Shown here piece by piece: positions 33,651 to 55,673 of a stretch of DNA of 64,000 bases; the first letter of the stretch is position 1, and every line of letters starts with the position of its first letter. Made by a program: the position numbers and the translations under genes. The notes beneath the pieces are model-generated. The model saw nothing but the letters and a program-made list of their open reading frames with translations. It was not told the origin of the DNA and made no database searches. The DNA is from an uncultured Odoribacter sp. (GTDB lineage: Bacteria; Bacteroidota; Bacteroidia; Bacteroidales; Marinifilaceae), in contig CAJUQA010000014.1 of assembly GCA_910588375.1 (NCBI GenBank), forward strand, positions 4,524 to 68,523, read 5' to 3'.

Positions 33651-35291
33651 ATGAGGAACGTCCTTCTTTTCGTCACATTATTGTTAGCCGGATGTCTTGC
33701 CCCTCACAGCAAAACAAGAGAAATGCTGACTCGGGCTGAAAGCAGGATGAACGAAAAACCGGACTCTGTCCTGTGTATCTTAAAACACCTCCCTCCCGGC
33801 GATTTGAAAACCGGAGAAGAACAAGCGTTGTTTGCCTTGTTATACAGTCAGGCGCTTGACAAGAACTACATCGACGTAACAAACGATTCATTGATAAACA
33901 TTGCTGTCCGTTATTATAATGACCATCCGGAGCCTTACCGCCTGATGCTTGCCTATTATTATTTATCACGGGTCCAACACAATGCGAAGAATTATGCGGC
34001 GAGCCTCCTGTCCGCCCATAAGGCCCGGAAACACGCAGAGAGCATCGGTAATCATTTCTTTCTCGGAATGATATACCGTAGCATGGCAACTATTTATAAC
34101 CGGATATACAATGCCAATGAAGAAATAAAATATTTCCTCCTCGCACATCAATTTTTTGTGAAAGCACACGCCGACAAGCACGCTAACGTTGCTTTTATTG
34201 ACATGGGGCATGCCTATCACAACAACCATGAATATGAAAAAAGCATCCGTATCGCACAACAATCTTTTGACTCGGCTTTCACGAAAAGGGATACAACCCT
34301 CATGACGGAGAGTCTTCACCTGCTCGGCTGTTCTTATGCCGCACAACAAAATTACCGGGAGGGAAAAGAGGTTATGCTCCGTTTACAAGCACTCTGCCCA
34401 ACCTACCTGTCCGACCAAGACTATAAAAATCTCGCACTTATTTATTTTTCGGAAAATAAGCTGGACAGTGCCACTTTTTATCAAAAACGAATAAAAAGCA
34501 GCCATGCGGCTATTTCGTGGATAGATTATAACCTCCACACACTGCAAGGGAACTATCCGCAAGCTCTCCGTGCACTGGAAATCATAAGCCGTACCCAGGA
34601 CTCCATTATCCGTCAAGCCTTAAACCAAAATATCAGTAGTACACTCGTTCAATATTACAAACAGGAAGAAGAAATGGCCGCTTATAAACTGAAACACGAA
34701 AAGCAACTACGTATCGGAATCAGTGTTTTCGGCATTCTTTTTATCATAGCACTCTACATTTTTTATCATATCCATTTACAAACCAAACAGCGCAAACTTG
34801 AAGATACCATTCTGTTTGCCACGGAATTAAGAGACAAATTGCTCCGACAGGATTCCGAAATGCAGAAAAGGGAGGGTTTTATTGACGAACTGTTAAAACA
34901 AAAATTCACCACCATCGACAAACTATGCTCTACCTACTACGAATGCCAGAACACAGAGCGGGAAGGCAAACGCATCCACACAGAAGTCATCGGTATCATT
35001 TCCAAGTTCAGAGAAGACCCGCACACACAAAAGGAATTGGAAACCTTCCTCGACACCTACAGGGATAATCTGATGAGCACATTCCGCCAAGAGTTTCCCA
35101 AATTAAAAAATTCCGATTACCAACTATTCCTTTACCACGCCCTCGGACTTTCCCAACGCTCTATTTCTATTTTTCTGCAAGAAAAAACGACGGTGATCTA
35201 TAACCGTAAAAACCGCCTTAAAAACAAAATCCAAAACAGTCAGAGCAAGAAAAAAGATTTATTCGTGCAAGTGTTTTCACTAAACCACTAA
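33651..35291 (+). CDS. transmembrane one-component regulator: lipobox signal + extracytoplasmic TPR domain + TM helix + coiled coil + C-terminal LuxR/GerE-like HTH
   Basis: The N-terminus MRNVLLFVTLLLAGC is a lipobox. About 330 aa of TPR-like repeats follow (LLYSQALDKNYID, YYYLSRVQHNAKNY and others). A TM helix IGISVFGILFIIALYIFYHI lies around residue 365-385. The C-terminal SDYQLFLYHALGLSQRSISIFLQEKTTVIYNRKNRLKNKI is HTH-like. Confidence 0.6.
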   Translation: MRNVLLFVTLLLAGCLAPHSKTREMLTRAESRMNEKPDSVLCILKHLPPGDLKTGEEQALFALLYSQALDKNYIDVTNDSLINIAVRYYNDHPEPYRLMLAYYYLSRVQHNAKNYAASLLSAHKARKHAESIGNHFFLGMIYRSMATIYNRIYNANEEIKYFLLAHQFFVKAHADKHANVAFIDMGHAYHNNHEYEKSIRIAQQSFDSAFTKRDTTLMTESLHLLGCSYAAQQNYREGKEVMLRLQALCPTYLSDQDYKNLALIYFSENKLDSATFYQKRIKSSHAAISWIDYNLHTLQGNYPQALRALEIISRTQDSIIRQALNQNISSTLVQYYKQEEEMAAYKLKHEKQLRIGISVFGILFIIALYIFYHIHLQTKQRKLEDTILFATELRDKLLRQDSEMQKREGFIDELLKQKFTTIDKLCSTYYECQNTEREGKRIHTEVIGIISKFREDPHTQKELETFLDTYRDNLMSTFRQEFPKLKNSDYQLFLYHALGLSQRSISIFLQEKTTVIYNRKNRLKNKIQNSQSKKKDLFVQVFSLNH

Positions 35292-35512
35292 TTATCAAAC
35301 GCATACATTTCAATTTCACACAAATAGGATACAACTTATTTATTTTCAATATTTTACAGATATTGATAGGAAACAAGAAACATGCGAAACACAATTAATT
35401 ATATATCAAAGCATTACAAAAACAACTGATAGATTTTTATGGTGTATTTTTACAACTATTTTCCTCCAAATGAAATAATTTTAACGACGAAATCTAATTA
35501 AAACAGCTAAAC

Positions 35513-35896
35513 ATGAATAAATTTATCAAACCAACCCTCGTACTTATTTTCATGCTTTGCATAGGTGGCTTGTTCAATGTAAAAGCAGAAGAAAACCAAA
35601 CAAAGCAAGAGACCGAAGTTACTTTACATTCAGATGGTGTTAAGAATCGTCCCCGCATGCCGGCAAAAATCACCATTCACTGCACGTATCGGAACGGTGA
35701 ATTGTATTTTTCATTTCCGGAAGAGATTGAATATCTCATAGTAAGCGTGGAACACGCCGAAAGCAAGTCCACGTGGACAAGCCAAATAAGCAAAGATGAC
35801 TGTATGTTTATTTCCACAGCCAAGGGTACATACACCCTATCGGCAGAAACCTCAAACGGACAACATTTCTCCGGCACATTGTATGTGACAGAATAA
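35513..35896 (+). CDS. small secreted beta-sandwich-type protein, DUF3244-like
   Basis: 127 aa. Signal peptide MNKFIKPTLVLIFMLCIGGLFNVKA. The pattern RPRMPAKITIHCTYRNGELYFSF...GTYTLSAETSNGQHFSGTLYV matches my recollection of DUF3244. Confidence 0.5.
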   Translation: MNKFIKPTLVLIFMLCIGGLFNVKAEENQTKQETEVTLHSDGVKNRPRMPAKITIHCTYRNGELYFSFPEEIEYLIVSVEHAESKSTWTSQISKDDCMFISTAKGTYTLSAETSNGQHFSGTLYVTE

Positions 35897-36076
35897 AAAA
35901 CAGGGAAAAGGGATACCGGCTATCTCAATAGCGTTATCCTGCCGGTATCCCGCACTCCCTCAAAGAAAGGAGGTCTCTAAAATAGCAAGAATTTAGAAAA
36001 AACGAAAGCCCCGCGCTTTTTCTGTTGAAAGGATACAGACAGAACATTCTATTTTTATAAATCATTAAAATTAAAT

Positions 36077-36319
36077 ATGATGAAGAAAAAAATCATCACT
36101 ATTGCTGCCATTGCAAGCATTGCATTATTAACCGCAGCATATAGCATCTTCTCTACAGAGAAAAACCAGGTTAGCTCACTGATGTTGGAAAATATCGAGG
36201 CATTGGCACAGAGTGAAGAAATTAATCCCTTATGTCCCAATGGATGTATAGACGGATCAGACGGATGCTATTGTTACAGATACTATCAGGAATATAGTGA
36301 ATATCATTGGAAAAATTAA
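36077..36319 (+). CDS. NVEALA-family-like small peptide precursor with Cys/Tyr-rich C-terminus
   Basis: 80 aa. N-terminal signal/anchor KKKIITIAAIASIALLTAAYSIF. Motif LENIEALAQSE (NIEALA at 36191-36208). The C-terminal 28 residues are CPNGCIDGSDGCYCYRYYQEYSEYHWKN, with 4 Cys and 6 Tyr. Confidence 0.6.
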   Translation: MMKKKIITIAAIASIALLTAAYSIFSTEKNQVSSLMLENIEALAQSEEINPLCPNGCIDGSDGCYCYRYYQEYSEYHWKN

Positions 36320-36327
36320 TTTTAACA

Positions 36328-36353
36328 ATGTTGCGCCTTAAAAGGCGCAACAT
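36328..36353 (+). terminator. perfect 10-bp hairpin immediately after the peptide gene (attenuator/partial terminator candidate)
   Basis: ATGTTGCGCC-TTAAAA-GGCGCAACAT, 9 nt after the stop codon and 23 nt before the next start (36376). The T-tract is weak (CCGAATTTATAATAATT), so read-through is plausible. Confidence 0.5.
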
Positions 36354-36375
36354 CCGAATTTATAATAATTATCTC

Positions 36376-37404
36376 ATGAAAAAAAAATTTATATATTTTG
36401 GGGTATTAATTCTCCTCATTGGGGGATGCAGCCGCAATTCGGATAGGGAAAAACATTACAGCAAGTATGGCAAGGTTATTAACATTCAAGAAAAATTGCA
36501 CTCCATTGAAATAAAAAATGTCCTAATTGGTCAATACGGCCACTTATATTTAATTGACAAATATTTAATCATAGGAGATCACATGTCGCCAGATAAACAA
36601 ATTCATCTGTTCGATAAAAACAGTTTCAACTATATTCTTAGCACCGGTTATAAGGGAAAAGGTCCCAACGAAATTACTATTTTAGGCAATATTGCTACTG
36701 ATAAAGTTCATCGAAAATTTTATGTTTCCGATCATGGGAAATTAAAAATATTCAGCTATGATTTAGACAGCCTTTTGGCTAATCCGTTATATCTTCCAAA
36801 TATAAAAATCAGTATGGACAAAAGCCGTTTCCCAGCCGGATATGAATATATAAACGATACTTTGTGCTTTGGATGTATTATAGAACCTATCGGAAATAAC
36901 GACTTCAAACCATGTGTAGGGAAATGGAATATGCTCACCAATGAAGTGCAATTAATGAAATACGAGCACCCTGACGTAAAAAAGAAAAGAACAATTACTG
37001 CCGTTTCCTCAAATTTAGGATTATATGTCGAAGCATATACTCGTCATGACTTAATAACAGTGGGGACGTTTAACGGCGAATTGAGATATAACATTTATGG
37101 TCCCAAGTGGGAAACGAAATTAAGCAAAAATGGTTACTACGGATCTACCAATTTCTGTAAAGATAAAATCATTAGCACTTATTTAGCTGACAACAGAATC
37201 AAAAAAGAACCTAATGGTAAGATAAGAAGTGCTTACCCGACAAAATTTGTTATTTTTGATTTGGAGGGAAACTATCTTCAAACATGGGAAACAGGATATG
37301 AAATAACAAATTTTGTTTATGATGAAGAAAATAATCGCCTCATTATAAGGATAGAGGATGCCGACGTGCAATTTGCTTATTTAAATCTTGACGGGTTATT
37401 ATGA
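36376..37404 (+). CDS. six-bladed beta-propeller lipoprotein, class A (BF3164-family-like), paralog A1
   Basis: I use the start MKKKFIYFGVLILLIGGC (lipobox) at 36376, because the track's upstream extension crosses the hairpin. The GKGPNEIT motif is present. 342 aa. The stop overlaps the next start (ATGA). Confidence 0.65.
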   Translation: MKKKFIYFGVLILLIGGCSRNSDREKHYSKYGKVINIQEKLHSIEIKNVLIGQYGHLYLIDKYLIIGDHMSPDKQIHLFDKNSFNYILSTGYKGKGPNEITILGNIATDKVHRKFYVSDHGKLKIFSYDLDSLLANPLYLPNIKISMDKSRFPAGYEYINDTLCFGCIIEPIGNNDFKPCVGKWNMLTNEVQLMKYEHPDVKKKRTITAVSSNLGLYVEAYTRHDLITVGTFNGELRYNIYGPKWETKLSKNGYYGSTNFCKDKIISTYLADNRIKKEPNGKIRSAYPTKFVIFDLEGNYLQTWETGYEITNFVYDEENNRLIIRIEDADVQFAYLNLDGLL

Positions 37405-38261
37405 TGGTTAGAATTATCACATACTTTTTAGGGATATTTTTACTCTCTGCTTGTCTATCCAAAAACAGAACTCAGATAACAGAACTAATTAAAACGTGGG
37501 ATGGGAAAGAAATTCTTTTTCCTAAGAAAATGAATATGGTACAAGTAGGAGATTCTATCCACAAAACCTTCTCTTTGGAAAATTATAAAATAATTGTCTA
37601 TGTAGATACAAACGGATGTTTCACATGCAAATTGCATTTGATGGAATGGGAGGATTTAATTACTGAGTTAGACTCCGTACCCGCCCTTTTTTATTTTGCC
37701 CCAAGAAGTACAGACTATGTAAAAGATATTTTGAAAGAAAATCTGTTTTATTATCCCGTTTGCATTGATGAAAAAGACAGCCTCAACATATTAAATAATT
37801 TCCCCAAAGACGAACGGTTTCACACGTTTTTATTAGACTGTAATAATCGGATTAAAGCTATCGGAAATCCCATAACCAATCCCAAAATCAAAGAACTTTA
37901 TCTGAAAGTGATTACAGGAGATACGTCGACGAAAAAACAAGTACCCCAAACGACGGTCGAGTATGAAACAACTATATGTGATTTAGGAGAGTTTACGCCC
38001 AAAGAGAAGCGGGAAGCCGTGTTTTCATTAAAAAATACAGGGGCACAACCGCTACTGGTGGCAGATGTGACAACCTCCTGCGGATGCGCAACACCCCGGT
38101 ATGACAAAAAGCCAGTAAAGCCAGGAGAAACCATAAAGATTACTGTGGAAATGAAAATAAAGGAAGAAGGGTATTTCGAAAAGACAATTTCAGTATATTG
38201 CAACACGCAAAATACACCGATTCAATTCAAGGTAAAAGGTAGGGTGGTGGATAAGAAATAG
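37401..38261 (+). CDS. lipoprotein fusing a thioredoxin-like (TlpA/redoxin-type, CxxC) domain to a C-terminal DUF1573 domain, copy 1
   Basis: Lipobox FLLSAC. Redoxin-like YKIIVYVDTNGCFTCKLHLMEW (CFTC at 37617-37628) and HTFLLDCNNRIKAIG. The C-terminal CDLGEF...FSLKNTGAQPLLVADVTTSCGCATPRYDKKPVKPGE is DUF1573-like. Confidence 0.6.
   Translation: MMVRIITYFLGIFLLSACLSKNRTQITELIKTWDGKEILFPKKMNMVQVGDSIHKTFSLENYKIIVYVDTNGCFTCKLHLMEWEDLITELDSVPALFYFAPRSTDYVKDILKENLFYYPVCIDEKDSLNILNNFPKDERFHTFLLDCNNRIKAIGNPITNPKIKELYLKVITGDTSTKKQVPQTTVEYETTICDLGEFTPKEKREAVFSLKNTGAQPLLVADVTTSCGCATPRYDKKPVKPGETIKITVEMKIKEEGYFEKTISVYCNTQNTPIQFKVKGRVVDKK
37623..38248 (+). repeat. 626-bp block identical to 39566-40191
   Basis: Row-by-row reading shows no differences between the flanking mismatches at 37616/37622 and 38249. 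The antisense track ORFs 37898-38206 and 39841-40149 are identical. Confidence 0.8.
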
Positions 38262-38281
38262 TAAAAAGGTACTAATCCAAA

Positions 38282-38302
38282 AAATAAATCATTACCTTGC
38301 GA
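38282..38302 (+). promoter_or_regulatory. conserved upstream motif AAATAAATCATTACCTTGCGA, copy A
   Basis: An identical 21-mer also occurs at 42745-42765 and 44964-44984. Each copy ends 16-18 nt upstream of a propeller-gene ATG. It contains TACCTTGC, a near match to the TAnnTTTG -7 box. Confidence 0.45.
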
Positions 38303-38318
38303 CTATCAATTCACTATC

Positions 38319-39347
38319 ATGAAAATAAAATTTGCCTATCTGTTGTTATTGATTTCCGTCTTTGGGGGATGCAACCAGCATTCCGAAACGGAAAAATATT
38401 ATAAAGAGTATGATAAAGTAATTAATGTTCATGATAGATTGCTGCCGATTAAAATAGAGGACATTTTTATTGGAGAAATTATTCAACTAAATTTATTAGA
38501 TAATTATTTGATTATCGGTGATTACCAATCACCCGATAAACTGATTCATTTATTCGATAAAAACAATTTTAAATATATTTGCAGTACTGGCAATAAAGGA
38601 AAAGGACCGGGAGAAATAACAAATTTAGGACATATCGCCCCGGATAAAATTCATCGAAAATTATACGTTTCAGACAATGGACAAGCAAAGCTATTTTGTT
38701 TTGATGTAGACAGCCTTTTAGCCGATCCCCTCTATCTCCCATATGTAAAATTAAACCTATCTAAAAGTGTCGTGCCAATAAATTACATATATGTAAATGA
38801 TACCCTATGTATCGGGTGTTGTTGGGAAATAATCGGGAATAACAATTTTAAACCCTATGTTGGAAAATGGAATATGCTAAGCAATGAAGTAAAACTAATA
38901 AAATATGAACATCCCGATGTAAAAAGAAAAAGGGTTTCCACTGCTGTTTCCCCAAAATTCGGATTATATATCGAAGCTCACGGGTGCTATGACTTAATAA
39001 CTATCGGCTCTCTTTCCGGGGAATTAAGATGTAATATATACGGACCCAATTGGGAAACTCAATTAAGTAAGAAATCATATTATGGCCGATGTAAATTTTG
39101 TAAAGATAAAATATTTGTAACTTATTTAGCCAAAGACCTATTTACAAAAGAAGCAAATGGGGAAATAAGAGGCAATTATACAACTCAATTTATTATTTTT
39201 GATTTAGAAGGCAATTATCTTCAAACGTTAGAAACCGATTACAGATTAAAAGATTTTATTTATGATGAAGAAAATAATCGCCTTATTATGGGGATAGAAG
39301 ATGCCGACGTGCAGTTTGCTTATTTAAATCTTGACGGGTTATTATGA
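38319..39347 (+). CDS. six-bladed beta-propeller lipoprotein, class A, paralog A2
   Basis: MKIKFAYLLLLISVFGGC lipobox and the GKGPGEIT motif. 342 aa, co-linear with A1 without gaps. ATGA overlap with the next gene. Confidence 0.65.
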   Translation: MKIKFAYLLLLISVFGGCNQHSETEKYYKEYDKVINVHDRLLPIKIEDIFIGEIIQLNLLDNYLIIGDYQSPDKLIHLFDKNNFKYICSTGNKGKGPGEITNLGHIAPDKIHRKLYVSDNGQAKLFCFDVDSLLADPLYLPYVKLNLSKSVVPINYIYVNDTLCIGCCWEIIGNNNFKPYVGKWNMLSNEVKLIKYEHPDVKRKRVSTAVSPKFGLYIEAHGCYDLITIGSLSGELRCNIYGPNWETQLSKKSYYGRCKFCKDKIFVTYLAKDLFTKEANGEIRGNYTTQFIIFDLEGNYLQTLETDYRLKDFIYDEENNRLIMGIEDADVQFAYLNLDGLL

Positions 39348-40204
39348 TGGTTAGAATTATCGCATTCTTTTTGAGTTTATTACTACTCTCTACCTGCCAG
39401 CACAAGGACAAATACAGGATAACAGAATTGATTAAGGCATGGGACGGGAAAGAGATTCTTTTTCCCAAGGAAATGAATATGGTACAAGTAGGAGATTCTG
39501 TCTACACAACCTTGTCCTTAGAAAATTATAAAATAATTGTCTATGTAGATACAAACGGCTGTTTTACATGCAAATTGCATTTGATGGAATGGGAGGATTT
39601 AATTACTGAGTTAGACTCCGTACCCGCCCTTTTTTATTTTGCCCCAAGAAGTACAGACTATGTAAAAGATATTTTGAAAGAAAATCTGTTTTATTATCCC
39701 GTTTGCATTGATGAAAAAGACAGCCTCAACATATTAAATAATTTCCCCAAAGACGAACGGTTTCACACGTTTTTATTAGACTGTAATAATCGGATTAAAG
39801 CTATCGGAAATCCCATAACCAATCCCAAAATCAAAGAACTTTATCTGAAAGTGATTACAGGAGATACGTCGACGAAAAAACAAGTACCCCAAACGACGGT
39901 CGAGTATGAAACAACTATATGTGATTTAGGAGAGTTTACGCCCAAAGAGAAGCGGGAAGCCGTGTTTTCATTAAAAAATACAGGGGCACAACCGCTACTG
40001 GTGGCAGATGTGACAACCTCCTGCGGATGCGCAACACCCCGGTATGACAAAAAGCCAGTAAAGCCAGGAGAAACCATAAAGATTACTGTGGAAATGAAAA
40101 TAAAGGAAGAAGGGTATTTCGAAAAGACAATTTCAGTATATTGCAACACGCAAAATACACCGATTCAATTCAAGGTAAAAGGTAGGGTGGTAGACAAGAA
40201 TTAA
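39344..40204 (+). CDS. thioredoxin-like (CxxC) + DUF1573 lipoprotein, copy 2
   Basis: Lipobox LLLSTC and CFTC at 39560-39571. From residue ~75 to 283 the protein is identical to copy 1. Confidence 0.6.
   Translation: MMVRIIAFFLSLLLLSTCQHKDKYRITELIKAWDGKEILFPKEMNMVQVGDSVYTTLSLENYKIIVYVDTNGCFTCKLHLMEWEDLITELDSVPALFYFAPRSTDYVKDILKENLFYYPVCIDEKDSLNILNNFPKDERFHTFLLDCNNRIKAIGNPITNPKIKELYLKVITGDTSTKKQVPQTTVEYETTICDLGEFTPKEKREAVFSLKNTGAQPLLVADVTTSCGCATPRYDKKPVKPGETIKITVEMKIKEEGYFEKTISVYCNTQNTPIQFKVKGRVVDKN
39566..40191 (+). repeat. 626-bp block identical to 37623-38248
   Basis: See the partner block. Confidence 0.8.
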
Positions 40205-40287
40205 AATTTTAAATGTAAATCATATAAATGAAAAAGAGAGGCATCATAGAGGGGGATAATCCTGTAATCCGATATCTATACCTTTTT

Positions 40288-41454
40288 ATGAAAAATATCG
40301 TATTCATTTTCTGTCTGTGTTTCTATGCTTGTCATTCAACACATATTCCCGAAGCCAAAAATAAAGTGGATTATAAACATCTGCCTCATTTTTCCTCACA
40401 AAAATTACTTCCGCAAAAATTCATTTTAGATTCCATAGTGATAGCCTTGCCGGAAGAAGACATTCTGTCTTCCATGAACGGCCAGTTCTTTTGCAACCAC
40501 GATACGATTTATTTTGCAGACAAACAATTGGCATCATTACTACTGTTTTCCCCCGAAGGGGAATTTATCGGCTATCGCCTGCGCCGAGGCAATGGTCCCA
40601 ATGAAATCAAAGGATTGTTTTCTATTGTACCCACACCTGAAAAACAATACATCATTTTAGACGAAAGCTGGCGCATTTATACATTCAACAACAGCTGGGA
40701 AAAAATCAACCAATTCAATATAGACTGGAGTTCCAAACGCACCTCCGTTGAAAAATATTCGCAAATAGACCCCAACTACCACGACATCTATGAAATACAA
40801 TATTCAAACAACTGTCTCCGTCCTTTTTCGGAAAAATATCTTGTCGTTCCTATTGTTACGGAGCATATAAAGTATAATGCTTATGAGAAGGCTTCCCATT
40901 TTTACGGAAATGCCTATACGTTGGGGTTGCTTGACCTTTCTTCCGGCAAGATAAGCAGCATGCTGTGCCAGCATTCCCCGATTTATCAACGCTATAAATA
41001 TATTCCTAATTTTCAGAACATATTGTATGACGTTTACCAAGACACGCTGGTGTTTTCATTTGAAGCCGACCCGCTTATTTACAAAATGAATCTTCTGGAT
41101 GGCAAAGCTTTTTCATTCGGCATGCCCGGTAAGGATATGAATACCAATTACCGAGAAACGAATAATTTTGAGGATGCGGACAAGAATTACCACAGAGACA
41201 GAAAGAAGTACGGTTATTATCAAGCGTTGAAGTATATCCCGCAAACGGGGATATTGTTCCGGAGTTATTCAAAGGGCGGTAAGGCGGGAGGAAATTCCCT
41301 GCAGGTGTACCGAGGCAATACGCTTGTCGGAGAGTACGGGAATTTGCCTGACAGGTTTCAAGTATACGGCTATATGGATTCGTGGTATTATGCCTGTGCC
41401 GCTCCCGATTTCGAGAATGAAAACCTTATTATTTACAAGTTTAAATTTGAATAA
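40288..41454 (+). CDS. six-bladed beta-propeller lipoprotein, class B (TolB-like/DUF5128-like), paralog B1
   Basis: I use the start MKNIVFIFCLCFYAC (lipobox) at 40288; the track start at 40228 is the alternative. Motif RRGNGPNEIKGLFSI. Confidence 0.55.
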   Translation: MKNIVFIFCLCFYACHSTHIPEAKNKVDYKHLPHFSSQKLLPQKFILDSIVIALPEEDILSSMNGQFFCNHDTIYFADKQLASLLLFSPEGEFIGYRLRRGNGPNEIKGLFSIVPTPEKQYIILDESWRIYTFNNSWEKINQFNIDWSSKRTSVEKYSQIDPNYHDIYEIQYSNNCLRPFSEKYLVVPIVTEHIKYNAYEKASHFYGNAYTLGLLDLSSGKISSMLCQHSPIYQRYKYIPNFQNILYDVYQDTLVFSFEADPLIYKMNLLDGKAFSFGMPGKDMNTNYRETNNFEDADKNYHRDRKKYGYYQALKYIPQTGILFRSYSKGGKAGGNSLQVYRGNTLVGEYGNLPDRFQVYGYMDSWYYACAAPDFENENLIIYKFKFE

Positions 41455-41456
41455 AT

Positions 41457-42662
41457 ATGCTACGCCGGACACTGTTATTGATTTGTTGTACTTTCAGCCT
41501 TTTTTCTCTTGCCGCGCAGGAAAAAATTCACGAATTGGAGGAAGTGACCATCTCCGACCGTTCTTTGGCCCAAATTATTAAAAAAGTTTATTCCCAATTG
41601 AACAGGAAAATAAAAGCACAATCTTATCCATACCCCAATTTCTACGGGAATGCCCGATATGAAAAGATTGTGGAAAGCAAAGGTAAGGCCATACAATTCG
41701 ACCGAGATTACGGACTTTTTCTGACAACCGGCAATGTGAAACATGCCGAATGGGATATTCAATACGCCTTTAACTTCTACCCTGTATATTCCGCTTACAG
41801 CTTCCGTTTATCAAACAGCGGGAAAGACACTCTCAAATTCCATTATCTTACCGGAGGAGCCAACTACAATAAGAATTTTAATTCCAATTCCCGAAAAATA
41901 TTCACAGCCATGCGGGCATTAACCCTTTACGGACCACTTTTCACTTCTCCCAGCTATTATACGTACAAATTAATTGACAACAGCAATAATACATATACCA
42001 TTGCATTCTCCCCGAAAAAGAAATATTACCTAAAAAAAATTCGGACGTTAGCTTATGGAACTTTACAAATAGACAAACAAGACCTCCATCTAAAAAGCAT
42101 GCAATTAGAAGACTTCACCTACCATCATCACTCGCTCGTACGTAAATTCAATAATCATGCCCAGTCTCCTTTCAGTTCCCGAATGAACGTCCGGTTCTCC
42201 TATGAGGGAGAAAACTGCTATATTCATACCTGTTATCTGGAAACTCATTGGGAATATCCGAAAAATGAGTTATATAAAGCAATAGAGGTTGCTTCCCGAC
42301 CTTACCCCGACCGCAATAAAATCGTTGAAAAAGAAGCATGGCAAGTCGAAAATATCGATTCTTTTCCTCATGAATCAGATGAAATTTTCCGTAAATCAAC
42401 AATCGTCGTTTATGGAAGCTATGCAGAAGAAGTATTCAAAACTCCTTCTTTATTGACGGCTGCCCCCCAAGCCATCCAAGATTTAAATCAATACATGGAT
42501 ATTGAAAAACAATACCGGTTATTTAACTATCCGGGGATATGGAATGACCATACATTCGATGAAAGAGTTCCTTATCAAGCACATTTGCAACGAGTTCCTT
42601 TTACACGAATTTTAATTCAAAAACTTTTTAAAGAACCTATACAAAACCATGAAATATATTAA
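41457..42662 (+). CDS. hypothetical secreted protein
   Basis: Signal peptide MLRRTLLLICCTFSLFSLAAQ. It starts 2 nt after B1. I recognise no family. It is the only gene in the cluster without a paralog in the window. Confidence 0.45.
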   Translation: MLRRTLLLICCTFSLFSLAAQEKIHELEEVTISDRSLAQIIKKVYSQLNRKIKAQSYPYPNFYGNARYEKIVESKGKAIQFDRDYGLFLTTGNVKHAEWDIQYAFNFYPVYSAYSFRLSNSGKDTLKFHYLTGGANYNKNFNSNSRKIFTAMRALTLYGPLFTSPSYYTYKLIDNSNNTYTIAFSPKKKYYLKKIRTLAYGTLQIDKQDLHLKSMQLEDFTYHHHSLVRKFNNHAQSPFSSRMNVRFSYEGENCYIHTCYLETHWEYPKNELYKAIEVASRPYPDRNKIVEKEAWQVENIDSFPHESDEIFRKSTIVVYGSYAEEVFKTPSLLTAAPQAIQDLNQYMDIEKQYRLFNYPGIWNDHTFDERVPYQAHLQRVPFTRILIQKLFKEPIQNHEIY

Positions 42663-42744
42663 TTATTTAAGGTGATCGAAGAACACTGGGAAAAGAAATT
42701 ATCCGCTCTCTATAAAAAATAGTAGTTGGTAGTCAAATCCCTCA

Positions 42745-42765
42745 AAATAAATCATTACCTTGCGA
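42745..42765 (+). promoter_or_regulatory. conserved upstream motif AAATAAATCATTACCTTGCGA, copy B
   Basis: Identical 21-mer, 17 nt upstream of the ATG at 42783. It is preceded by AAATAGTA, which resembles the stop-codon context of the Trx-DUF1573 genes. Confidence 0.45.
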
Positions 42766-42782
42766 GTACCCAAATCATTATC

Positions 42783-43811
42783 ATGAATATAAAATTCGCC
42801 TATCTGTTGTTATTAATTTCCGTATTTGGAGGATGTAGCCAGCATTCCGAAACGGAAAAATATTACAATGAATACAACAAAGTGATTAATATTCGCGACA
42901 GGTTGCAAGCGATTGAGATAAAGGATGCTTTTATAGGTGATTTTGCACAATTATACTTAATGGACAATTATTTAATCATAGGGGATCACCTGTCGCCAGA
43001 TAAACAAATTCATCTGTTCGATAAAAACAGTTTCAAATACATTCTTAGCACAGGTTATAAGGGGAAAGGTCCCCATGAAATAACTCGTTTAGGATATATT
43101 GCCACTGATGAAGTCCATCGAAAATTTTATGTTTCCGATCATGGGAAATTAAAAATATTCAGCTATGATTTGGACAGTCTTTTGGCTGATCCATTATATC
43201 TTCCAAGTATAAAAATCTGTATGAATAATAGCCGGTTACCCAATCGATATAAATATGTAAATGACACATTATGTATCGGAAGTATTATAGAGCCTATCGG
43301 AAATAACGACTTCAAGCCATTTGTGGGGAAATGGAATATGCAGACCAATGAAACAAAGTTGATGAAATACGAACATCCCGATGTTAAGAAAAAACGGATA
43401 TTTACCAATGTTTCGCCGGAATTAGATTTGTATGTAGAAGCGCATATACGTCATGACTTAATAACTGTCGGAACCTTGGATGGTGAGTTAAAATACAATA
43501 TATACGGACCTCATTGGGAAACGAAATTAAGTAAAAACGATTACTACGGCCCTATTATTTTCTGTAAAGATAAAATTATTGCGACCTATCTGGCTGAATA
43601 TGGATTTGTTAAAGAAGACAATGGGAGAATTAGAGGTAAATCGCCAAGTAAATTTGTTATTTTTAATTTGGAGGGGGACTATCTTCAAACATGGGAAACA
43701 GGATATGAAATAACAAATTTTGTTTATGATGAAGAGAACAATCGCCTTATTATAGGCTTGGAAGATGCAGACGTGCAATTTGTTTGTTTAAATCTGGAGG
43801 GATTGTTATGA
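42783..43811 (+). CDS. six-bladed beta-propeller lipoprotein, class A, paralog A3
   Basis: I use the start MNIKFAYLLLLISVFGGC at 42783. The GKGPHEIT motif is present. 342 aa, closest to A1. ATGA overlap with the next gene. Confidence 0.65.
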   Translation: MNIKFAYLLLLISVFGGCSQHSETEKYYNEYNKVINIRDRLQAIEIKDAFIGDFAQLYLMDNYLIIGDHLSPDKQIHLFDKNSFKYILSTGYKGKGPHEITRLGYIATDEVHRKFYVSDHGKLKIFSYDLDSLLADPLYLPSIKICMNNSRLPNRYKYVNDTLCIGSIIEPIGNNDFKPFVGKWNMQTNETKLMKYEHPDVKKKRIFTNVSPELDLYVEAHIRHDLITVGTLDGELKYNIYGPHWETKLSKNDYYGPIIFCKDKIIATYLAEYGFVKEDNGRIRGKSPSKFVIFNLEGDYLQTWETGYEITNFVYDEENNRLIIGLEDADVQFVCLNLEGLL

Positions 43812-44818
43812 TAAAAAAGATATTATTTTCCTTATTAGTATTACAAACAGTATTGGGGTGCTCGTCCAATACTACAACAGAAAAACATTTATCCCATCGA
43901 AATAATATCGTGAATGTTCATGACAAGGTTATTCCAATACATATAGATGAACCGTATATCAGTTCAAACTGCAAACCTTACGTAATGGACAAATATTTAT
44001 TTATCGTAGACTTTCAATGTTTAGATAGATTCATCCATATTTTTGACAAAAATACCTTTCAATACCTTTCCAGTATTGCCCCCAAAGGACGTGGACCATA
44101 CGAGTTTATAAACATCGGGGATATTTGCCCCGATGAGAAAAACCGTAAATTTTATGTGTTCGACTTCGGAAAATACAAATTACACAGCTATGATTTAGAC
44201 AGTGTCATCCGCGATCCTTCCTATCGGTTTCATGATAAAGCCAACTTCAAAGAACCTTTATATCCTCACAGATGTTGCTACGTCAACGATACTCTCAACC
44301 TGGTTGCCATTTCGGATGTCGAAAATAACTACAGAAACGTAAATGAGATCGCAGGACTTTGGAATATGCGCACGGGAGAATTGCATATCGGTTATGAAAA
44401 TCCGTACGTAAAGAAAAAACGCTTTCAATTCACAGGCTCGGCAGAGGAAGGCGTCTATGTCAAATGTTATTCCCGCTATGACCTTATGACAATATGTAAC
44501 TTAGACGGAACACTGAAATGCAATGTTTATGGTCCAGAATGGAGCAAGGAAATAACCAATACCTGTCACTACAACATGGACGTTCATATTTGCAAGGATA
44601 AAATACTCGCTCTCTATTCCGGAGCAGATCATCGTTCCAAAGAGCATTATCCTTCAAAAATCCATATTTTTGACACAGCAGGAAATTACATAAAAACATT
44701 GGAAACCGGATTTCACATTCTATATTTTTGGTATGACAAGGAAAAACACCGGATTATTTTCTGCACCTATTATGACGAAATGCTATTCGGATACCTGAAT
44801 TTGGAAGGAATTATATAA
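43808..44818 (+). CDS. six-bladed beta-propeller lipoprotein, divergent class A, paralog A4
   Basis: I use the start MIKKILFSLLVLQTVLGC at 43808. The GRGPYEFI motif is present. The C-terminal half is the donor type for the chimeric paralog A5. Confidence 0.6.
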   Translation: MIKKILFSLLVLQTVLGCSSNTTTEKHLSHRNNIVNVHDKVIPIHIDEPYISSNCKPYVMDKYLFIVDFQCLDRFIHIFDKNTFQYLSSIAPKGRGPYEFINIGDICPDEKNRKFYVFDFGKYKLHSYDLDSVIRDPSYRFHDKANFKEPLYPHRCCYVNDTLNLVAISDVENNYRNVNEIAGLWNMRTGELHIGYENPYVKKKRFQFTGSAEEGVYVKCYSRYDLMTICNLDGTLKCNVYGPEWSKEITNTCHYNMDVHICKDKILALYSGADHRSKEHYPSKIHIFDTAGNYIKTLETGFHILYFWYDKEKHRIIFCTYYDEMLFGYLNLEGII

Positions 44819-44870
44819 ATCTTAAAATCATGCCTAAAATTATTATATACCTCTCTATCTTTTATTTGCG

Positions 44871-44945
44871 TTTTCAATATATTGCAACACGCACAATGCA
44901 CCGATTCAATTCAAGATAAAAGGTAGCGTGGTGGATAAGAAATAG
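44871..44945 (+). pseudogene. 3'-terminal remnant (~24 codons) of a third Trx-DUF1573 gene
   Basis: It translates to FSIYCNTHNAPIQFKIKGSVVDKK*, compared with ISVYCNTQNTPIQFKVKGRVVDKK* in copy 1. The same downstream spacer and 21-mer motif follow. No upstream ORF body is present. Confidence 0.7.
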
Positions 44946-44963
44946 TAAAAGTACGAATCCCCC

Positions 44964-44984
44964 AAATAAATCATTACCTTGCGA
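44964..44984 (+). promoter_or_regulatory. conserved upstream motif AAATAAATCATTACCTTGCGA, copy C
   Basis: Identical 21-mer, 18 nt upstream of the ATG at 45003. Confidence 0.45.
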
Positions 44985-45002
44985 TTACGAAAATATCCAA
45001 CT

Positions 45003-46103
45003 ATGAAATACATAAATTACTATCTTTTAATTGTGGCCTGTTTTTGGACAAGCTGTAAAACAAATTATAAAGAAAACAATACAAGTATCCCATTTAACGC
45101 TCTGCAAGAATATAGACTGGAAGATAGCAAGTTCGATATTTTAACTCCTGTTAAATATATCGTACTACATTCGGGTACCGAGAATATGGAAATTGCCTAT
45201 ACCGATAAAATCGAGACGTTTGATAATAAAATTTATATTGCAGATAAAACGTCTTCCAAATTAGTTGTATTCGATACAACAGGAAAAGCCATTGGATGTG
45301 TGGGACATAAAGGACATGGTCCGGGCGAATATATCAATATTACTGATTTTTCTATTGACAAGGAGGGTAATATCTATATATTGGATTATAATACTTCTTC
45401 CCTGTTAAGATACAACAAAGAGAATGATTTTATCGGCTCTCGAAAATTGCCTTTTAATGCTGAAACATTTCAATGTATCTCCGATAATAAGTTTGCTTTC
45501 AGTTTAACTGCCAATAATTCCGGGAAATATCCGGCTGATCATATTATTATTACAAACAATGATTTAGAGAAAGAAAAAACCATTGCAAGATACGAGAATA
45601 GTACAGATGATAATTTTCATTTATCCAGTTTCGGATTTACCAAAACAAAAAACGGAATATTTTACCACAAGCCGATTGACGACCACGTCTATTTGCTTGA
45701 TGATTCCGGCAACCTTAAAAATGTATTTCTCTTTGACTTTGGAAATAAACTTGTCCCCGATTCTTATAGGACGAATATTGAAGATAAATTAGAGGCTTTT
45801 ACGAACTATACTACATTGACGTTCTTTACTCTCATTTATGATAATTATATTTACGGGTCGTTATTTGACGAAGGACATTACAAACAATTTGTTTTGGATA
45901 GAAATACCCATAAAATCTATAAAAAAACAGATGAAAGTATTGATAGGTACGGACATTGGTTCGGCACCTGCGGAAGTTATCTTGTCAGTGTCTTTCCTCC
46001 TATTTTTGAGAAAAACAATTATCCATCGGATTTTCCCAATGATTTGAAAAAAGCATTGGCAGAAGAGAAAATTGTGCTGTGTTTTTATTCCATTAAACCA
46101 TAA
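45003..46103 (+). CDS. six-bladed beta-propeller lipoprotein, class B, paralog B2
   Basis: I use the start MKYINYYLLIVACFWTSC at 45003. Motif HKGHGPGEYINITDFSI. Confidence 0.55.
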   Translation: MKYINYYLLIVACFWTSCKTNYKENNTSIPFNALQEYRLEDSKFDILTPVKYIVLHSGTENMEIAYTDKIETFDNKIYIADKTSSKLVVFDTTGKAIGCVGHKGHGPGEYINITDFSIDKEGNIYILDYNTSSLLRYNKENDFIGSRKLPFNAETFQCISDNKFAFSLTANNSGKYPADHIIITNNDLEKEKTIARYENSTDDNFHLSSFGFTKTKNGIFYHKPIDDHVYLLDDSGNLKNVFLFDFGNKLVPDSYRTNIEDKLEAFTNYTTLTFFTLIYDNYIYGSLFDEGHYKQFVLDRNTHKIYKKTDESIDRYGHWFGTCGSYLVSVFPPIFEKNNYPSDFPNDLKKALAEEKIVLCFYSIKP

Positions 46104-46114
46104 TACACCCTATC

Positions 46115-47122
46115 ATGAATATAAAATTTGCCTATCTGTTGTTATTAATCCCTGTCTTTGGGGGATGCAAGCAGCATTTCGAAACGGAAAAACATTATAA
46201 AGGGTATGATAACGTCATTAATGTCCATGACAGATTGCAGCCGATTGAGATAAAAGAGGTGTTTTTTAGTGATTTTGCCAATCTATACCTCATGGATAAG
46301 TATTTAATCATAAGTGATTATCATTCTCCGGATAGACACATTCACTTATTTGATAAAAACAGTTTCAAGTACATTTGCAGTACAGGCAATAAAGGAAATG
46401 GACCGGGAGAGATAACGAATTTGGGAGATATTGCTACTGACGAATCTCATGGAAAATTCTACGTTTCCGATCATGGGAAATTAAAAATATTCAGCTATGA
46501 TTTGGACAGCCTTTTGGCTGATCCGCTATATCTTCCAAGTATAAAGGTCTGTATGGATAATAGCCTTTTCCCTTCCGAATATGAATATATAAACGATACC
46601 TTGTGCTTCGGACGCATGATTAAACCTATCGGAAATAATGACTTCAACCCATTTGTGGGGAAATGGAATATGCTGACCAATGAATTTGAATTGATGAAGT
46701 ATGAACATCCCGACGTGAAGAAAAAACGCTTTCAGTTCGCCGTTTCTACCGAGGAAGGCATTTATGTTGAATGTTATTCCCGCTATGACCTTATGATAAT
46801 ATGCAATTTGGACGGCACACTGAAATGCAATGTTTACGGTCCGAAATGGAGCAAGGAGATAACCAATATCTGCCACTACAATATGGAGGTTCATATTTGC
46901 AAGGATAAAATATTCGCTCTCTATTCCGGAGCAGATCATCGTTCCGAAGACTATTACCCTTCAAAAATCCATATTTTCGACACTGCGGGGAATTACATAA
47001 AAACACTGGAAACAGGATATCACATTCTAAGTTTCCAGTATGATAAGGAAAAACACCGGATTATTCTCTGCACCAACGGCGAAATGCAATTCGGATACCT
47101 GGATTTGGAAGGAATTATATAA
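46115..47122 (+). CDS. six-bladed beta-propeller lipoprotein, class A chimera (A1/A3-type N-half, A4-type C-half), paralog A5
   Basis: MNIKFAYLLLLIPVFGGC lipobox and the GNGPGEIT motif. Residues 1-~200 align best with A1/A3. From HPDVKKKRFQF onward the protein aligns closely with A4. Confidence 0.65.
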   Translation: MNIKFAYLLLLIPVFGGCKQHFETEKHYKGYDNVINVHDRLQPIEIKEVFFSDFANLYLMDKYLIISDYHSPDRHIHLFDKNSFKYICSTGNKGNGPGEITNLGDIATDESHGKFYVSDHGKLKIFSYDLDSLLADPLYLPSIKVCMDNSLFPSEYEYINDTLCFGRMIKPIGNNDFNPFVGKWNMLTNEFELMKYEHPDVKKKRFQFAVSTEEGIYVECYSRYDLMIICNLDGTLKCNVYGPKWSKEITNICHYNMEVHICKDKIFALYSGADHRSEDYYPSKIHIFDTAGNYIKTLETGYHILSFQYDKEKHRIILCTNGEMQFGYLDLEGII

Positions 47123-47134
47123 ATTAAAGTATTT

Positions 47135-48259
47135 ATGAGAATAACAATACTACTATCTCTAATATTTGCGTTAGGAGGATGTACCTCTCAAATAACATTT
47201 GATTCTTCACATGTTGATACGATAATAAAGGTCGGAGAGGCATTGAAAGCACCTGTCAGCGATTTTCAATTTACTATTGACAGTAGTTGGCTCATAGCTT
47301 TAAAAACACCGGATGAAAAAATACAAGGAAGTATTACCAAAATAAAAATACATGATCATCTTATTTATACTTTAGATGAGTTACAATCCAAAAATCTGAA
47401 TGTATATGACTTTAACGGAAATTATGTCAGAAGTATCGGCAATATTGGCAAAGGACCGCAAGAATTACTCAATATATCGGATTTCTGTATCTATCAAGAA
47501 CAAATTTTTCTGATTGACAACATTACGGAACGCATCCAAATATTTTCAACAACATCAGGTAAATTTTTAAAAACCGTACCCCTTTCTTTCCGACCTCACG
47601 AAATGGAGGTTATCAACGACAACCAATATCTGTTTGAATTATCCGAATATAACCAAGGGCATGAGGACAGATTTCAAAGATATAACCTTGTCGTCACAGA
47701 CAGTTTATTTCAGCCTCAAACATTCTTTCTCTCCCATCCCAAAACAAAAGACAATTCGGTGCAGTATATCAGTATTAATAATCCTTTCAATCGCGTTAAA
47801 GATTCCATTTATTACTTTTCCACTATCACCGATGCCGTTTATCAATTTTCAATTGATTCACTCACACAATGCGTGTATTTTGATTTCGGTCGTCAATATT
47901 CTATCCCTACCGACCTTAAATATGACGACAATAAATTCACGAAATATGCCCAAAGACACGATTATGCCTATTTCGTTGAAAGCCCCATCTTATTAGAGAA
48001 TTATATCGCCGGAATACTACGAGTTAATAAAAAGAAGTTTTTCGTTTTAACCGACAGGCAAGAATGCTTCGTGAAAGAAATATCATTAAATGATTATAAT
48101 GCTTTAGACCCTGTTTTTTGCATAGGAGCTTATGGGAATACGTTAATTTCTACCATAGACGATGTCGGTTTACAACAATTTAAAGCCAAAAATCTCTTTT
48201 CGGAGCAAATTACAAATCATGAGAATTACAATTTTATCCTATTCTCCAAACTGAAATAA
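47135..48259 (+). CDS. six-bladed beta-propeller lipoprotein, class B, paralog B3
   Basis: MRITILLSLIFALGGC lipobox and motif NIGKGPQELLNISDFCI. 374 aa. Confidence 0.55.
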   Translation: MRITILLSLIFALGGCTSQITFDSSHVDTIIKVGEALKAPVSDFQFTIDSSWLIALKTPDEKIQGSITKIKIHDHLIYTLDELQSKNLNVYDFNGNYVRSIGNIGKGPQELLNISDFCIYQEQIFLIDNITERIQIFSTTSGKFLKTVPLSFRPHEMEVINDNQYLFELSEYNQGHEDRFQRYNLVVTDSLFQPQTFFLSHPKTKDNSVQYISINNPFNRVKDSIYYFSTITDAVYQFSIDSLTQCVYFDFGRQYSIPTDLKYDDNKFTKYAQRHDYAYFVESPILLENYIAGILRVNKKKFFVLTDRQECFVKEISLNDYNALDPVFCIGAYGNTLISTIDDVGLQQFKAKNLFSEQITNHENYNFILFSKLK

Positions 48260-54545: not shown

Positions 54546-54575
54546 TCCCCAACACACTATAAAATATACTGAAAT

Positions 54576-55661: not shown

Positions 55662-55673
55662 CAAGCAAGAACT

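Follow-up and report, generated by a model that had tools for sequence, protein, structure and literature searches.

The heat-stable enterotoxins of Escherichia coli are made as pre-pro-peptides that pass through Sec, are oxidised by periplasmic DsbA and leave the cell in a TolC-dependent manner; NisI and SpaI are lipoproteins that confer immunity to lantibiotics; dedicated signal peptidases are encoded with their substrates in tapA-sipW-tasA of Bacillus subtilis and among the TraF-type S26 enzymes; and NHLRC2 and SOQ1 are proteins in which a thioredoxin (Trx) domain accompanies an NHL propeller. Within the Bacteroidales, BcpI and BcdI are known as lipoprotein immunity proteins (PMC11901371), and the loci of the bacteroidetocins (class IIf) encode a thiol oxidoreductase of their own, since Bacteroides is reported to have no general disulfide machinery (PMC6671954). 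Here we analyse a stretch of 64,000 nucleotides (nt) from an uncultured Odoribacter sp. (GenBank assembly GCA_910588375.1, contig CAJUQA010000014.1, forward-strand positions 4,524 to 68,523; hereafter the window), which holds a gene array encoding one small NVEALA-type precursor peptide, eight six-bladed propeller lipoproteins and two lipoproteins that join a thioredoxin-like domain to DUF1573 (Trx-DUF1573), followed by an S26 signal peptidase and further envelope proteins.

Our preferred reading, which we advance tentatively as one that could well be right, is that NVEALA loci encode Sec-exported, peptidase-processed, disulfide-bonded, bacteriocin-like peptides together with cognate propeller lipoproteins for binding or immunity. 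The combination of a Sec-type NVEALA leader, a dedicated S26 peptidase, Trx-DUF1573 proteins, propeller partners, and Wzy_C and transglutaminase-like proteins appears to be undescribed. In the literature searched, from whose scope subscription papers mostly fell, neither 'NVEALA' nor work linking these families was found, and DUF5128, BF3164, DUF1573 and '6-bladed beta-propeller' gave nothing relevant; a Bacteroidales mining study of ribosomally synthesised and post-translationally modified peptides (RiPPs) and a 2025 review of Bacteroidales antagonism mention neither propellers nor a signal peptidase.

Precursor peptides and their propeller partners

The 80-residue product n passes the Pfam NVEALA profile (PF14055; E 1.6e-9, 37.8 bits where 27 is the cut-off), its motif reading NIEALA at residues 39-44, and its tail holds the 4 Cys and 6 Tyr that had led a sequence-only reading of the array, made from its letters and open reading frames (ORFs), to call it a Cys/Tyr-rich peptide of NVEALA type. 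The same reading had seen a hydrophobic leader and a tail in the product, and a division into leader and core is upheld by the relatives of n: in the 15 closest, residues 1-46 are nearly invariant (MKKKIITIAAIGS...NSLMLENIEALAQSE) while the tails are unrelated and Cys-bearing. For the wider comparison, one scan of a single genome per species with an alignment of 13 Trx-DUF1573 sequences returned 246 relatives and 79 loci (from Odoribacter, Bacteroides, Phocaeicola, Parabacteroides, Mediterranea and other genera), and another, of metagenome contigs with an S26 alignment, yielded 80 more loci; 165 related loci were compared, annotated with profiles built within this analysis, and 86 loci were used for ORF clustering and motif search. 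In these 86 loci the NVEALA motif was met in 172 small ORFs, and in none (0) when the sequences were reversed as a control. A logo built from 147 unique precursors agrees with the leader/core division, displaying a K-rich n-region, a hydrophobic segment, a spacer of some 21 residues and the motif [ML]S[DE]L.L.N[VI]EALA.[GD]E, after which conservation ends; the logo positions flanking the motif were not selected by the motif search.

The cores have a median length of 36 residues and carry 2 Cys (n=73), 4 (n=69) or 6 (n=8), with an odd count in 16, a mostly even distribution of the kind expected for disulfide-bonded peptides. Core families recur across genera, that of n (family 1; C-P-N-G-C ... 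G-C-x-C ... aromatic-P ... R/K-E) being found in Bacteroides and Parabacteroides as well, and up to nine unrelated cores occur within one locus. Leaders follow the locus rather than the core, their identity being 90% within a locus across core families and 33% between loci within a core family. With a ribosomal precursor, a conserved leader and a variable core, the peptides have the precursor architecture of RiPPs. The perfect hairpin that had been noted 3' of the peptide gene also proved real (Table 1) and is no peculiarity of n: strong hairpins, taken as those within 40 nt whose dG is at most -12 kcal/mol, stand after 33% of the 160 distinct NVEALA genes, as opposed to 3% of propeller genes and 8% of Trx-DUF1573 genes, and since the hairpin sequences differ, what recurs is the structure and not the sequence.

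Propellers stand beside these peptides in their own subfamilies. Five class A products of the window (32-41 bits) and two of class B (115-121 bits) pass the Pfam profiles PF17170 DUF5128 / PF15869 TolB_like (cut-off 22.9), whose six-bladed propellers go by the NCBI names '6-bladed beta-propeller' and 'BF3164 family lipoprotein'; B3 has no Pfam match and is recognised as the third class B member by hhalign only (98.1% to the class B profile, E 1e-13). The earlier count of eight propeller lipoproteins, five of class A and three of class B, is thereby borne out, as is the G-x-G-P-x-E motif in 8 of 8. Compared between loci, propellers standing after peptides of one core family give a median normalised bit score of 0.47, against 0.04 for propellers of different core families and 0.03 for neighbours within a locus; moreover, for 84 of 95 propellers (88%) the best foreign match has the same core family beside it, where shuffling gives 8% (maximum 18%). 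Core families and propeller subfamilies are co-inherited, each core family with a subfamily of its own.

Many propellers nevertheless stand without a peptide: of 279 in the non-redundant loci, 126 have an NVEALA gene directly upstream and 153 (55%) are orphans. The window is an extreme example, with one peptide gene and eight propellers, seven of which lack a peptide. All five of its class A copies belong to the family-1-cognate clade, and the sister-species propeller to which A4 is 87% identical (Table 1) goes with another family-1 peptide, P0004, for which this genome has no gene. No class A propellers were found in viral contigs. Propellers of a further class, C (Pfam DUF4221, the family of PDB 3s9j), also occur after NVEALA genes, for instance in loci L016, L026, L046 and L134, and pair with core families of their own, such as DGYCHT..Y..ICNYYD.G.ICPCGF.

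The third element, the Trx-DUF1573 lipoprotein, was likewise recognised correctly from the sequence. Both copies, T1 and T2 (286 residues each), match PF07610 DUF1573 (100.7 and 100.4 bits, cut-off 26.1), and a remnant of a third copy is present as had been claimed. In 36 homologues, down to 33% identity, the lipobox Cys, the G-C-x-x-C-K-L motif and the S-C-G-C of DUF1573 are invariant, which in T1 includes residues C73, C76, C227 and C229. An AlphaFold2 (AF2) model (pLDDT 85) has an N-terminal thioredoxin fold and a C-terminal PapD/ASH-like immunoglobulin (Ig) domain; Foldseek relates the former to StoA (3erw, TMt 0.63), 3kcm and 4nmu and the latter to 2qsv. The StoA profile itself matches the Trx domain at only E 0.006, far under its cut-off; by predicted fold and conserved CxxC the domain is one of TlpA/ResA/StoA type.

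These families form a recurrent neighbourhood. The usual gene order is a membrane regulator, then repeated units of an NVEALA gene, a propeller of class A, B or C and optionally a Trx-DUF1573 gene, and then the S26 peptidase gene (S), X (a transglutaminase-like lipoprotein), W (a Wzy_C protein) and an RND pump. Among the 79 loci centred on Trx-DUF1573, NVEALA genes are present in 73, propellers in 78, S26 in 47, X in 60 and W in 41, and the genome-neighbourhood association of NVEALA, propellers and Trx-DUF1573 that the sequence-only reading had put up for testing is found far above chance (73/79 and 78/79). Conversely, 42 of the 45 S26-centred loci with more than 3 kb of upstream sequence have propellers there, and of the 48 with more than 3 kb downstream, 43 have W, 30 the membrane-fusion gene m and 28 the RND gene P. 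Clustering of ORFs of at least 100 residues in the 86 loci gave no recurrent ABC, C39, five-transmembrane, radical-SAM or other cytoplasmic maturase family, and none of the 165 loci has an ABC/C39 gene; no recognisable core-modifying maturase family is present, and the propellers, W and X are candidates for such a role. Typical Bacteroides-type arrays were also met in three metagenome-assembled genomes labelled Lachnospiraceae or Bacillales (L035, L043, L045), labels that most likely reflect binning error and not an occurrence in Firmicutes.

Cassette exchange and locus architecture

Comparison with sister species indicates how the array changes. Homology (about 80% DNA identity in the flanks) covers the regulator R, the 127-residue gene d and the peptide leader, breaks off at 36218, where leader meets core, and sets in again at 48290, the start of S26; GC content is 0.354 between these points and 0.48-0.49 outside them, and the cassette content at this fixed chromosomal site differs between sister species. 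The last 79 nt of the Trx-DUF1573 gene (repeat family D7) recur at three cassette junctions. T1 and T2 differ at synonymous sites by a pS of 0.028 over codons 61-286 and of 0.47 over codons 1-60, whereas the propellers of the same 1943-bp tandem unit diverged anciently, with saturated dS, which points to a recent gene conversion limited to part of T. A5 is itself a chimera, its first 200 or so residues being 75-80% identical to A3 and its last 140 or so 82-87% identical to A4. Recombination thus acts at the leader and at the T 3' ends.

Two side observations concern the same elements. B3 and its partner o form a module (40228-42662) that moves together: in Odoribacter lunatus (L008:3756-6028; 72% nt identity) it lies upstream of R and not inside the array, and its GC of about 0.40 is above that of the rest of the island. 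In GCA_948829535.1, of the same species as the window, both Trx-DUF1573 copies (L166:11322-12182 and 13265-14125) are split alike into ORFs of 209 and 36 residues, either because a disruption spread by gene conversion or because of a repeat assembly artefact.

As to layout, the 14 ORFs of 33651-48259 lie on the + strand at the coordinates given for them by the sequence-only reading, with spacings of -4 to 221 nt, ATGA start/stop overlaps at 37401, 39344 and 43808, and a lipobox or signal sequence opening every one of the 14 products, all as had been described. Its right boundary of 48259 was too narrow, because the tightly spaced co-directional string extends through 48290-61945, with spacings of 30, 0, -20, 75, 30 and 12 nt along S, W, X and the OEP, membrane-fusion and AcrB-type genes; S26, W, X and the RND block had accordingly been missed from its account of the unit. 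Scans of the locus for sigma-70 promoters, terminators and the Bacteroides -7 motif TAnnTTTG gave frequencies no higher than in shuffles; one TAAATTTG lies at 33612, 32 nt 5' of the start of R. The second stem-loop 3' of d, with its T run, is a possible terminator separating R-d from n.

Table 1. Features of the array and its 3' block in window coordinates
Feature	Position	Strand	Basis
R, membrane-spanning regulator: N-terminal lipobox, periplasmic TPRs, one transmembrane helix, putative C-terminal sigma-r4/LuxR-like helix-turn-helix	33651..35291	+	TPR_2 E 8.6e-7
d, 127-residue secreted protein, weakly DUF3244-like, always 3' of R	35513..35896	+	DUF3244 E 0.035, below cut-off
Two stem-loops 3' of d, the second (~36004-36020) followed by a T run	35910..36020	+	fold z = -2.95
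n, NVEALA precursor	36077..36319	+	Pfam PF14055
n leader (MKKK, hydrophobic segment, ...LMLENIEALAQSE)	36080-36217	+	leader/core split
n core, family 1 (CPNGC...GCxC, 4 Cys)	36218-36316	+	core clustering; cross-species homology ends at 36218
Perfect 11-bp hairpin between peptide gene n and propeller gene A1	36328..36353	+	dG -17.8 kcal/mol, z = -3.98
A1, class A six-bladed propeller lipoprotein, cognate partner of family-1 peptide	36376..37404	+	DUF5128; best foreign relatives sit after family-1 peptides
T1, lipoprotein with thioredoxin-fold CxxC domain and DUF1573 Ig-like domain with SCGC	37401..38261	+	DUF1573 E 4.6e-29
A2, orphan class A propeller lipoprotein, family-1-cognate clade	38319..39347	+	AF2 pLDDT 90.5
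T2, second Trx-DUF1573 lipoprotein	39344..40204	+	codons 61-286 near-identical to T1
B3, divergent propeller-superfamily lipoprotein; likely start 40288	40228..41454	+	hhalign to class B profile; carries GNGPNE
o, 401-residue secreted protein, partner of B3 in two-gene module	41457..42662	+	no Pfam, NCBIfam or PDB match
A3, orphan class A propeller lipoprotein	42783..43811	+	DUF5128
A4, orphan class A propeller	43808..44818	+	87% identity to sister-species propeller after peptide P0004
Remnant of third Trx-DUF1573 gene, last 29 codons; cassette-junction marker	44856..44942	+	tblastn, 65% identity, E 7e-8
B1, orphan class B propeller lipoprotein	44979..46103	+	DUF5128 E 7.8e-35; NHL-like by PDB sequence search
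A5, orphan class A propeller, chimera (N-terminal A3-like, C-terminal A4-like)	46115..47122	+	windowed identity
B2, orphan class B propeller lipoprotein	47135..48259	+	DUF5128 E 4.3e-33
S, S26 signal peptidase I paralogue, candidate leader peptidase	48290..49135	+	Peptidase_S26 and TIGR02227 matches
W, Wzy_C (O-antigen-ligase-like) polytopic membrane protein, C-terminal TPR	49136..50926	+	Wzy_C match
X, lipoprotein with transglutaminase-like Cys/His core and C-terminal CBM6/32-like (discoidin) domains	50907..52940	+	PDB profile matches
O-m-P-P, OEP outer-membrane factor, membrane-fusion protein, two tandem AcrB-type RND genes	53016..61945	+	family matches

The first gene of the 3' block encodes a signal peptidase I with the Ser/Lys dyad and boxes B, D and E of that family: it matches Peptidase_S26 at 97.8 bits and TIGR02227 at 95.7 bits (cut-off 47), with weak matches to TraF models, and its S40, K114 and box E GD..S.DSRY.G are invariant in 24 system-linked homologues. 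It is present in 54 of the 86 loci, and X in 67. Pfam returned no match for X; PDB profiles match it to CBM6/CBM32 and, marginally, to a transglutaminase, its C248 and H281 are invariant, and its homologues are lipoproteins of 640-680 residues. By homology, W and X would be glycan-related. In one genome of B. intestinalis, three arrays each have their own diverged S26 (58-65% identity), W and X, which makes S, W and X paralogues belonging to the system instead of one housekeeping neighbour. An equivalent neighbourhood in B. thetaiotaomicron VPI-5482 comprises BT0662 (O-antigen ligase family), BT0664 (six-bladed propeller), BT0667 (lepB) and BT0669 (RND adaptor) (PMC10434189). In five Joint Genome Institute metagenome contigs (L147, L148, L149, L154, L159) the order is W-S-X instead of S-(X)-W, with no cassettes in the short flanks available, and these contigs may represent a variant or cassette-free form of the block. 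The tandem AcrB-type genes at 55674-61945, after the OEP and membrane-fusion genes, constitute an MdtBC-like arrangement, and the order m-P-O-P is frequent among the related loci.

At the other end of the array, the regulator R was described as a membrane-spanning protein with extracytoplasmic TPRs and a cytoplasmic helix-turn-helix (HTH); the TPRs and the membrane-spanning topology hold, and the HTH is weak, with marginal matches to sigma region 4 and FixJ (E 0.2-1, Pfam and PDB profiles). Against NCBIfam NF053779, the BT3442 family, R scores 80.9 bits (E 8e-23, residues 3-450) where the equivalog cut-off is 940, and is therefore a homologue of that family and not a member. Protein d is secreted, as claimed, and its likeness to DUF3244 is weak: the match to PF11589 is nearly full length at 14.5 bits, short of the cut-off of 25. 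The R-d pair is kept in 10 loci, and the d family occurs in 9 loci, always adjoining R. The pair is homologous to BT_3442/BT_3441 of B. thetaiotaomicron, which heads a cluster of MACPF (perforin-like) lipoproteins and in which BT_3441 is Ig-like (PDB 3d33) (PMC2954219); since its homologues head so different a cluster there, R-d may be a portable head module for different secreted-protein arrays. In the Bacteroides, Phocaeicola and Parabacteroides loci (L009-L085), R-d is replaced by r, a non-homologous regulator of 350 residues with two transmembrane segments and a marginal winged-helix match (for example L031:4814-5863). Directly after 42 of 55 r regulators comes a conserved 2-Cys peptide of core family 0 (C.G.GS[VL]DCP...KV.Y...YSLE), and 42 of 50 family-0 peptides sit after r, often followed by Trx-DUF1573 in place of a propeller; this peptide, which the window array lacks, may be an inducer or regulatory peptide.

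NCBIfam matched none of n, the class A propellers, o and d. Elsewhere in the window, a low-GC (0.34) block at 370-5699 encodes an EpsG-family polymerase-like protein, GT2, GT1 and GT4 glycosyltransferases and an NAD-dependent epimerase, and is probably part of a capsule or exopolysaccharide locus.

Proposed mechanism and rival explanations

Under the reading that we prefer, the precursor would be exported by Sec and the dedicated S26 peptidase would remove the leader directly after EALA, a proposed site whose invariant A-L-A agrees with the -3/-1 rule. Disulfides would then be formed or shuffled by the Trx-DUF1573 lipoprotein, a role made plausible by the thiol oxidoreductase that bacteroidetocin loci bring along in a genus reported to have no general Dsb system. 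The folded peptide of 30-40 residues would act as a bacteriocin-like antagonist outside the cytoplasm, possibly leaving by the adjacent pump, a possible route across the outer membrane whose involvement is uncertain, or by vesicles; the cognate propeller lipoprotein would bind its own peptide type and shield the producer, for which the lipoproteins BcpI and BcdI offer a Bacteroidales precedent, and orphan propellers would shield against the peptides of neighbours. The window would accordingly comprise one producer cassette (n-A1-T1) and a seven-gene island of immunity type, cassettes being exchanged through homology arms supplied on the left by leader DNA and on the right by either the S26 gene or T 3' ends, while the hairpin 3' of the peptide gene would raise the peptide transcript relative to the genes downstream. 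A bolder and slightly more tentative version sees in these loci a polymorphic, Sec-dependent peptide weapon, in which dozens of unrelated disulfide-knotted cores ride on one locus-specific leader, a dedicated peptidase releases them, Trx-DUF1573 folds them and propellers neutralise them, orphan arrays being acquired defence islands and leader DNA the recombination handle. Of the interpretations offered by the sequence-only reading, the recurrent system, the leader and core, the Trx fold and the hairpin survive in this scheme, and its alternative view, in which the propellers make up a set of lipoproteins for reception or immunity, is the best fit, given co-inheritance and the 55% of orphans; that the set is diversifying finds no counterpart in positive selection.

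Several points weigh against the proposal. Toxicity, processing and binding are all steps that we infer, and cleavage after ALA is among them: the hydrophobic segment ends about 21 residues before it, far beyond a normal c-region, and the peptide may instead remain anchored in the membrane or be cleaved at another site, perhaps by X. Trx lipoproteins of StoA/ResA type mostly act as reductants, the StoA-like domain could by analogy be an oxidase, an isomerase or a reductase, and no redox partner gene for Trx-DUF1573 was found in the loci, so the direction of the presumed exchange counts as a difficulty. An RND pump is present in only about 60% of loci with enough flank, and RND pumps are not known to export peptides of 3-4 kDa; a propeller of 340 residues would be an unusual immunity protein; and W and X are left without a role. 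Nor does every NVEALA peptide fit the role of a toxin, family 0 being conserved, tied to a regulator and often without a propeller. The class A paralogues diverged long ago and, taken over whole genes, evolve under purifying selection (dN/dS 0.08-0.16, dS saturated), by which positive selection is ruled out at that level and no whole-gene arms-race signal is seen, and no strain-level polymorphism was seen among those contigs of the same species that carry the identical peptide, all of one arrangement.

The same features have to be accommodated by other explanations. The propellers might be core-specific periplasmic modifying enzymes (cyclase, cross-linker, lyase or sulfotransferase) of a RiPP-like pathway that Trx-DUF1573 and S26 complete, and the leader/core architecture together with the one-to-one pairing of core family and propeller subfamily would suit this well; six-bladed NHL/SGL propellers do include enzymes, the AF2 model of A2 (all-beta) resembles the Drp35 lactonase (TMq 0.58), and NCBIfam gives a weak similarity to ScyF, of scytonemin biosynthesis. 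We nonetheless consider it unlikely. For A2, Foldseek returns only generic propellers, with TM no higher than 0.6 (the best being 3s9j, 4raa, Drp35 and NHL domains, of which the first two are Bacteroides proteins without known function from the JCSG structural-genomics programme), and the invariant residues (hhhD strand ends and GxGPxE) look like structural positions of the blade repeat. The analogies with amidating lyases and aryl-sulfotransferases drawn by the sequence-only reading do not hold up either: neither sequence nor structure searches matched the propellers to such enzymes, family-1 cores end in WKN, WNN, REAG, KWS, DWTR and the like instead of the Gly that an amidating lyase needs, and their Tyr count ranges from 1 to 6 with no conserved pattern, Tyr-richness being particular to n alone. 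Moreover, more than half of the propellers, and seven of eight in the window, have no substrate gene beside them, and a leader-directed enzyme needs no separate paralogue for each core. Signalling, with the peptides as secreted or periplasmic pheromones, the propellers as receptors or sinks and R or r as the readout, so that the outcome would be kin recognition or quorum sensing and not killing, draws on the one-component membrane regulator with a periplasmic domain that heads nearly every array and on the mutual adjacency of r and family 0, an arrangement reminiscent of class II bacteriocin loci, whose induction peptides share the bacteriocin leader. It accounts for family 0 and fails to account for as many as nine unrelated cores in one locus, and it leaves unexplained both the orphan propeller arrays and a window array that has no family 0; being compatible with bacteriocin loci and usually part of them, signalling is perhaps a sub-function and not a rival, and as a full account we regard it as quite improbable.

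Uncleaved NVEALA proteins anchored in the inner membrane, whose Cys-knot tails dock on cognate propellers in variable trans-envelope pairs that, for example, exclude phages or toxins or maintain the envelope together with the Wzy_C and transglutaminase-like proteins, would make sense of the long spacer before ALA, atypical for signal-peptidase substrates, of the glycan-related homology of W and X, of the specific pairing and of the envelope location of all products; the system nevertheless conserves a dedicated and catalytically intact S26 peptidase, the invariant A-L-A, with its acidic or Gly-rich linker behind it, has the look of a processing site, and a hairpin that boosts the peptide transcript and a surplus of orphans are more in keeping with a ligand that diffuses than with a fixed 1:1 complex, all of which makes us doubt this account strongly. 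That there is no system at all, the families having merely piled up 5' of a housekeeping lepB operon because recombination has a hot spot there, is suggested by the low GC of the cassette region relative to its flanks and by its variable content at a fixed site. This we hold to be very improbable indeed, as it is largely refuted by the co-variation of core and propeller, by the reciprocal association across Odoribacter, Bacteroides, Phocaeicola and Parabacteroides and by the several diverged S, W and X sets in one genome, each attached to an array; the genes, too, overlap or abut, with ATGA coupling.

Relation to known systems

NVEALA, the DUF5128/TolB_like/DUF4221 propellers and DUF1573 all belong to the large paralogous families that are still uncharacterised in gut Bacteroides, Phocaeicola, Parabacteroides and Odoribacter, and several such loci can occur in one genome. 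If they do encode peptide antagonists with cognate protection, they would amount to a major and unrecognised layer of gut interbacterial competition that is open to test, would give several DUFs a function, would make available, as a library, disulfide-rich peptides that have diversified in nature and come with their matching binders, and would add a new case of a signal peptidase dedicated to its substrate. Should the function prove to be another, cores and propeller subfamilies co-inherited one to one would still define specific ligand-receptor pairs that can be tested directly, for instance at BT0662-BT0669 of B. thetaiotaomicron VPI-5482.

The logic of the system (a conserved delivery part, a variable payload, a cognate partner and orphans) is that of polymorphic toxin and bacteriocin systems. 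With the bacteroidetocins (PMC6671954) it shares small Cys-bearing peptides of Bacteroidales (2-4 Cys in bacteroidetocins), a division into leader and mature part, and a thiol oxidoreductase in the locus; those peptides, however, have a double-glycine leader of 15 residues, cleavage and export by a C39-ABC protein and a five-transmembrane protein, with no propellers, S26 or cassette arrays, whereas here the leader is hydrophobic, of Sec type, and ends in NVEALA, so that neither leader nor exporter is that of a bacteroidetocin. In gene architecture the loci match polymorphic toxin-immunity systems, namely those of contact-dependent inhibition and the acquired interbacterial defence islands of orphan immunity genes in Bacteroidales, in having a conserved N-terminus, a variable C-terminus, a co-inherited downstream partner and orphan partners, and, as at the VENN-type junction of such toxins, a short invariant motif marks where cross-species homology breaks (36218). 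The variable part here is a Cys-rich peptide of 30-50 residues and not an enzyme domain, delivery would be through Sec and not through a type V or type VI secretion system or Rhs, and the partner is a 340-residue propeller lipoprotein.

The remaining likenesses concern single components. The enterotoxins of E. coli resemble the NVEALA peptides in their pre-pro organisation, extracytoplasmic disulfides and small knotted product, with a tripartite pump as a possible exit, but rely on housekeeping enzymes and have no cognate lipoprotein, arrays or dedicated peptidase. As in tapA-sipW-tasA and the TraF systems, an S26 paralogue is encoded together with the secreted substrates that it presumably processes, although substrates, organisms and everything else are unrelated. 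NisI, SpaI, BcpI and BcdI are lipoproteins encoded beside a peptide or protein toxin that protect the producer by binding or shielding, as we suppose the propellers do, but their fold and size are unrelated and none is a beta-propeller. Finally, a thioredoxin-like CxxC domain is linked functionally with an NHL-type six-bladed propeller in NHLRC2 and SOQ1 as it would be here, and SOQ1 is also a weak match of class B in the PDB sequence search; in the present loci the two reside on separate lipoproteins, the Trx domain is fused to DUF1573, and the propellers are many and core-specific where the Trx protein is generic.

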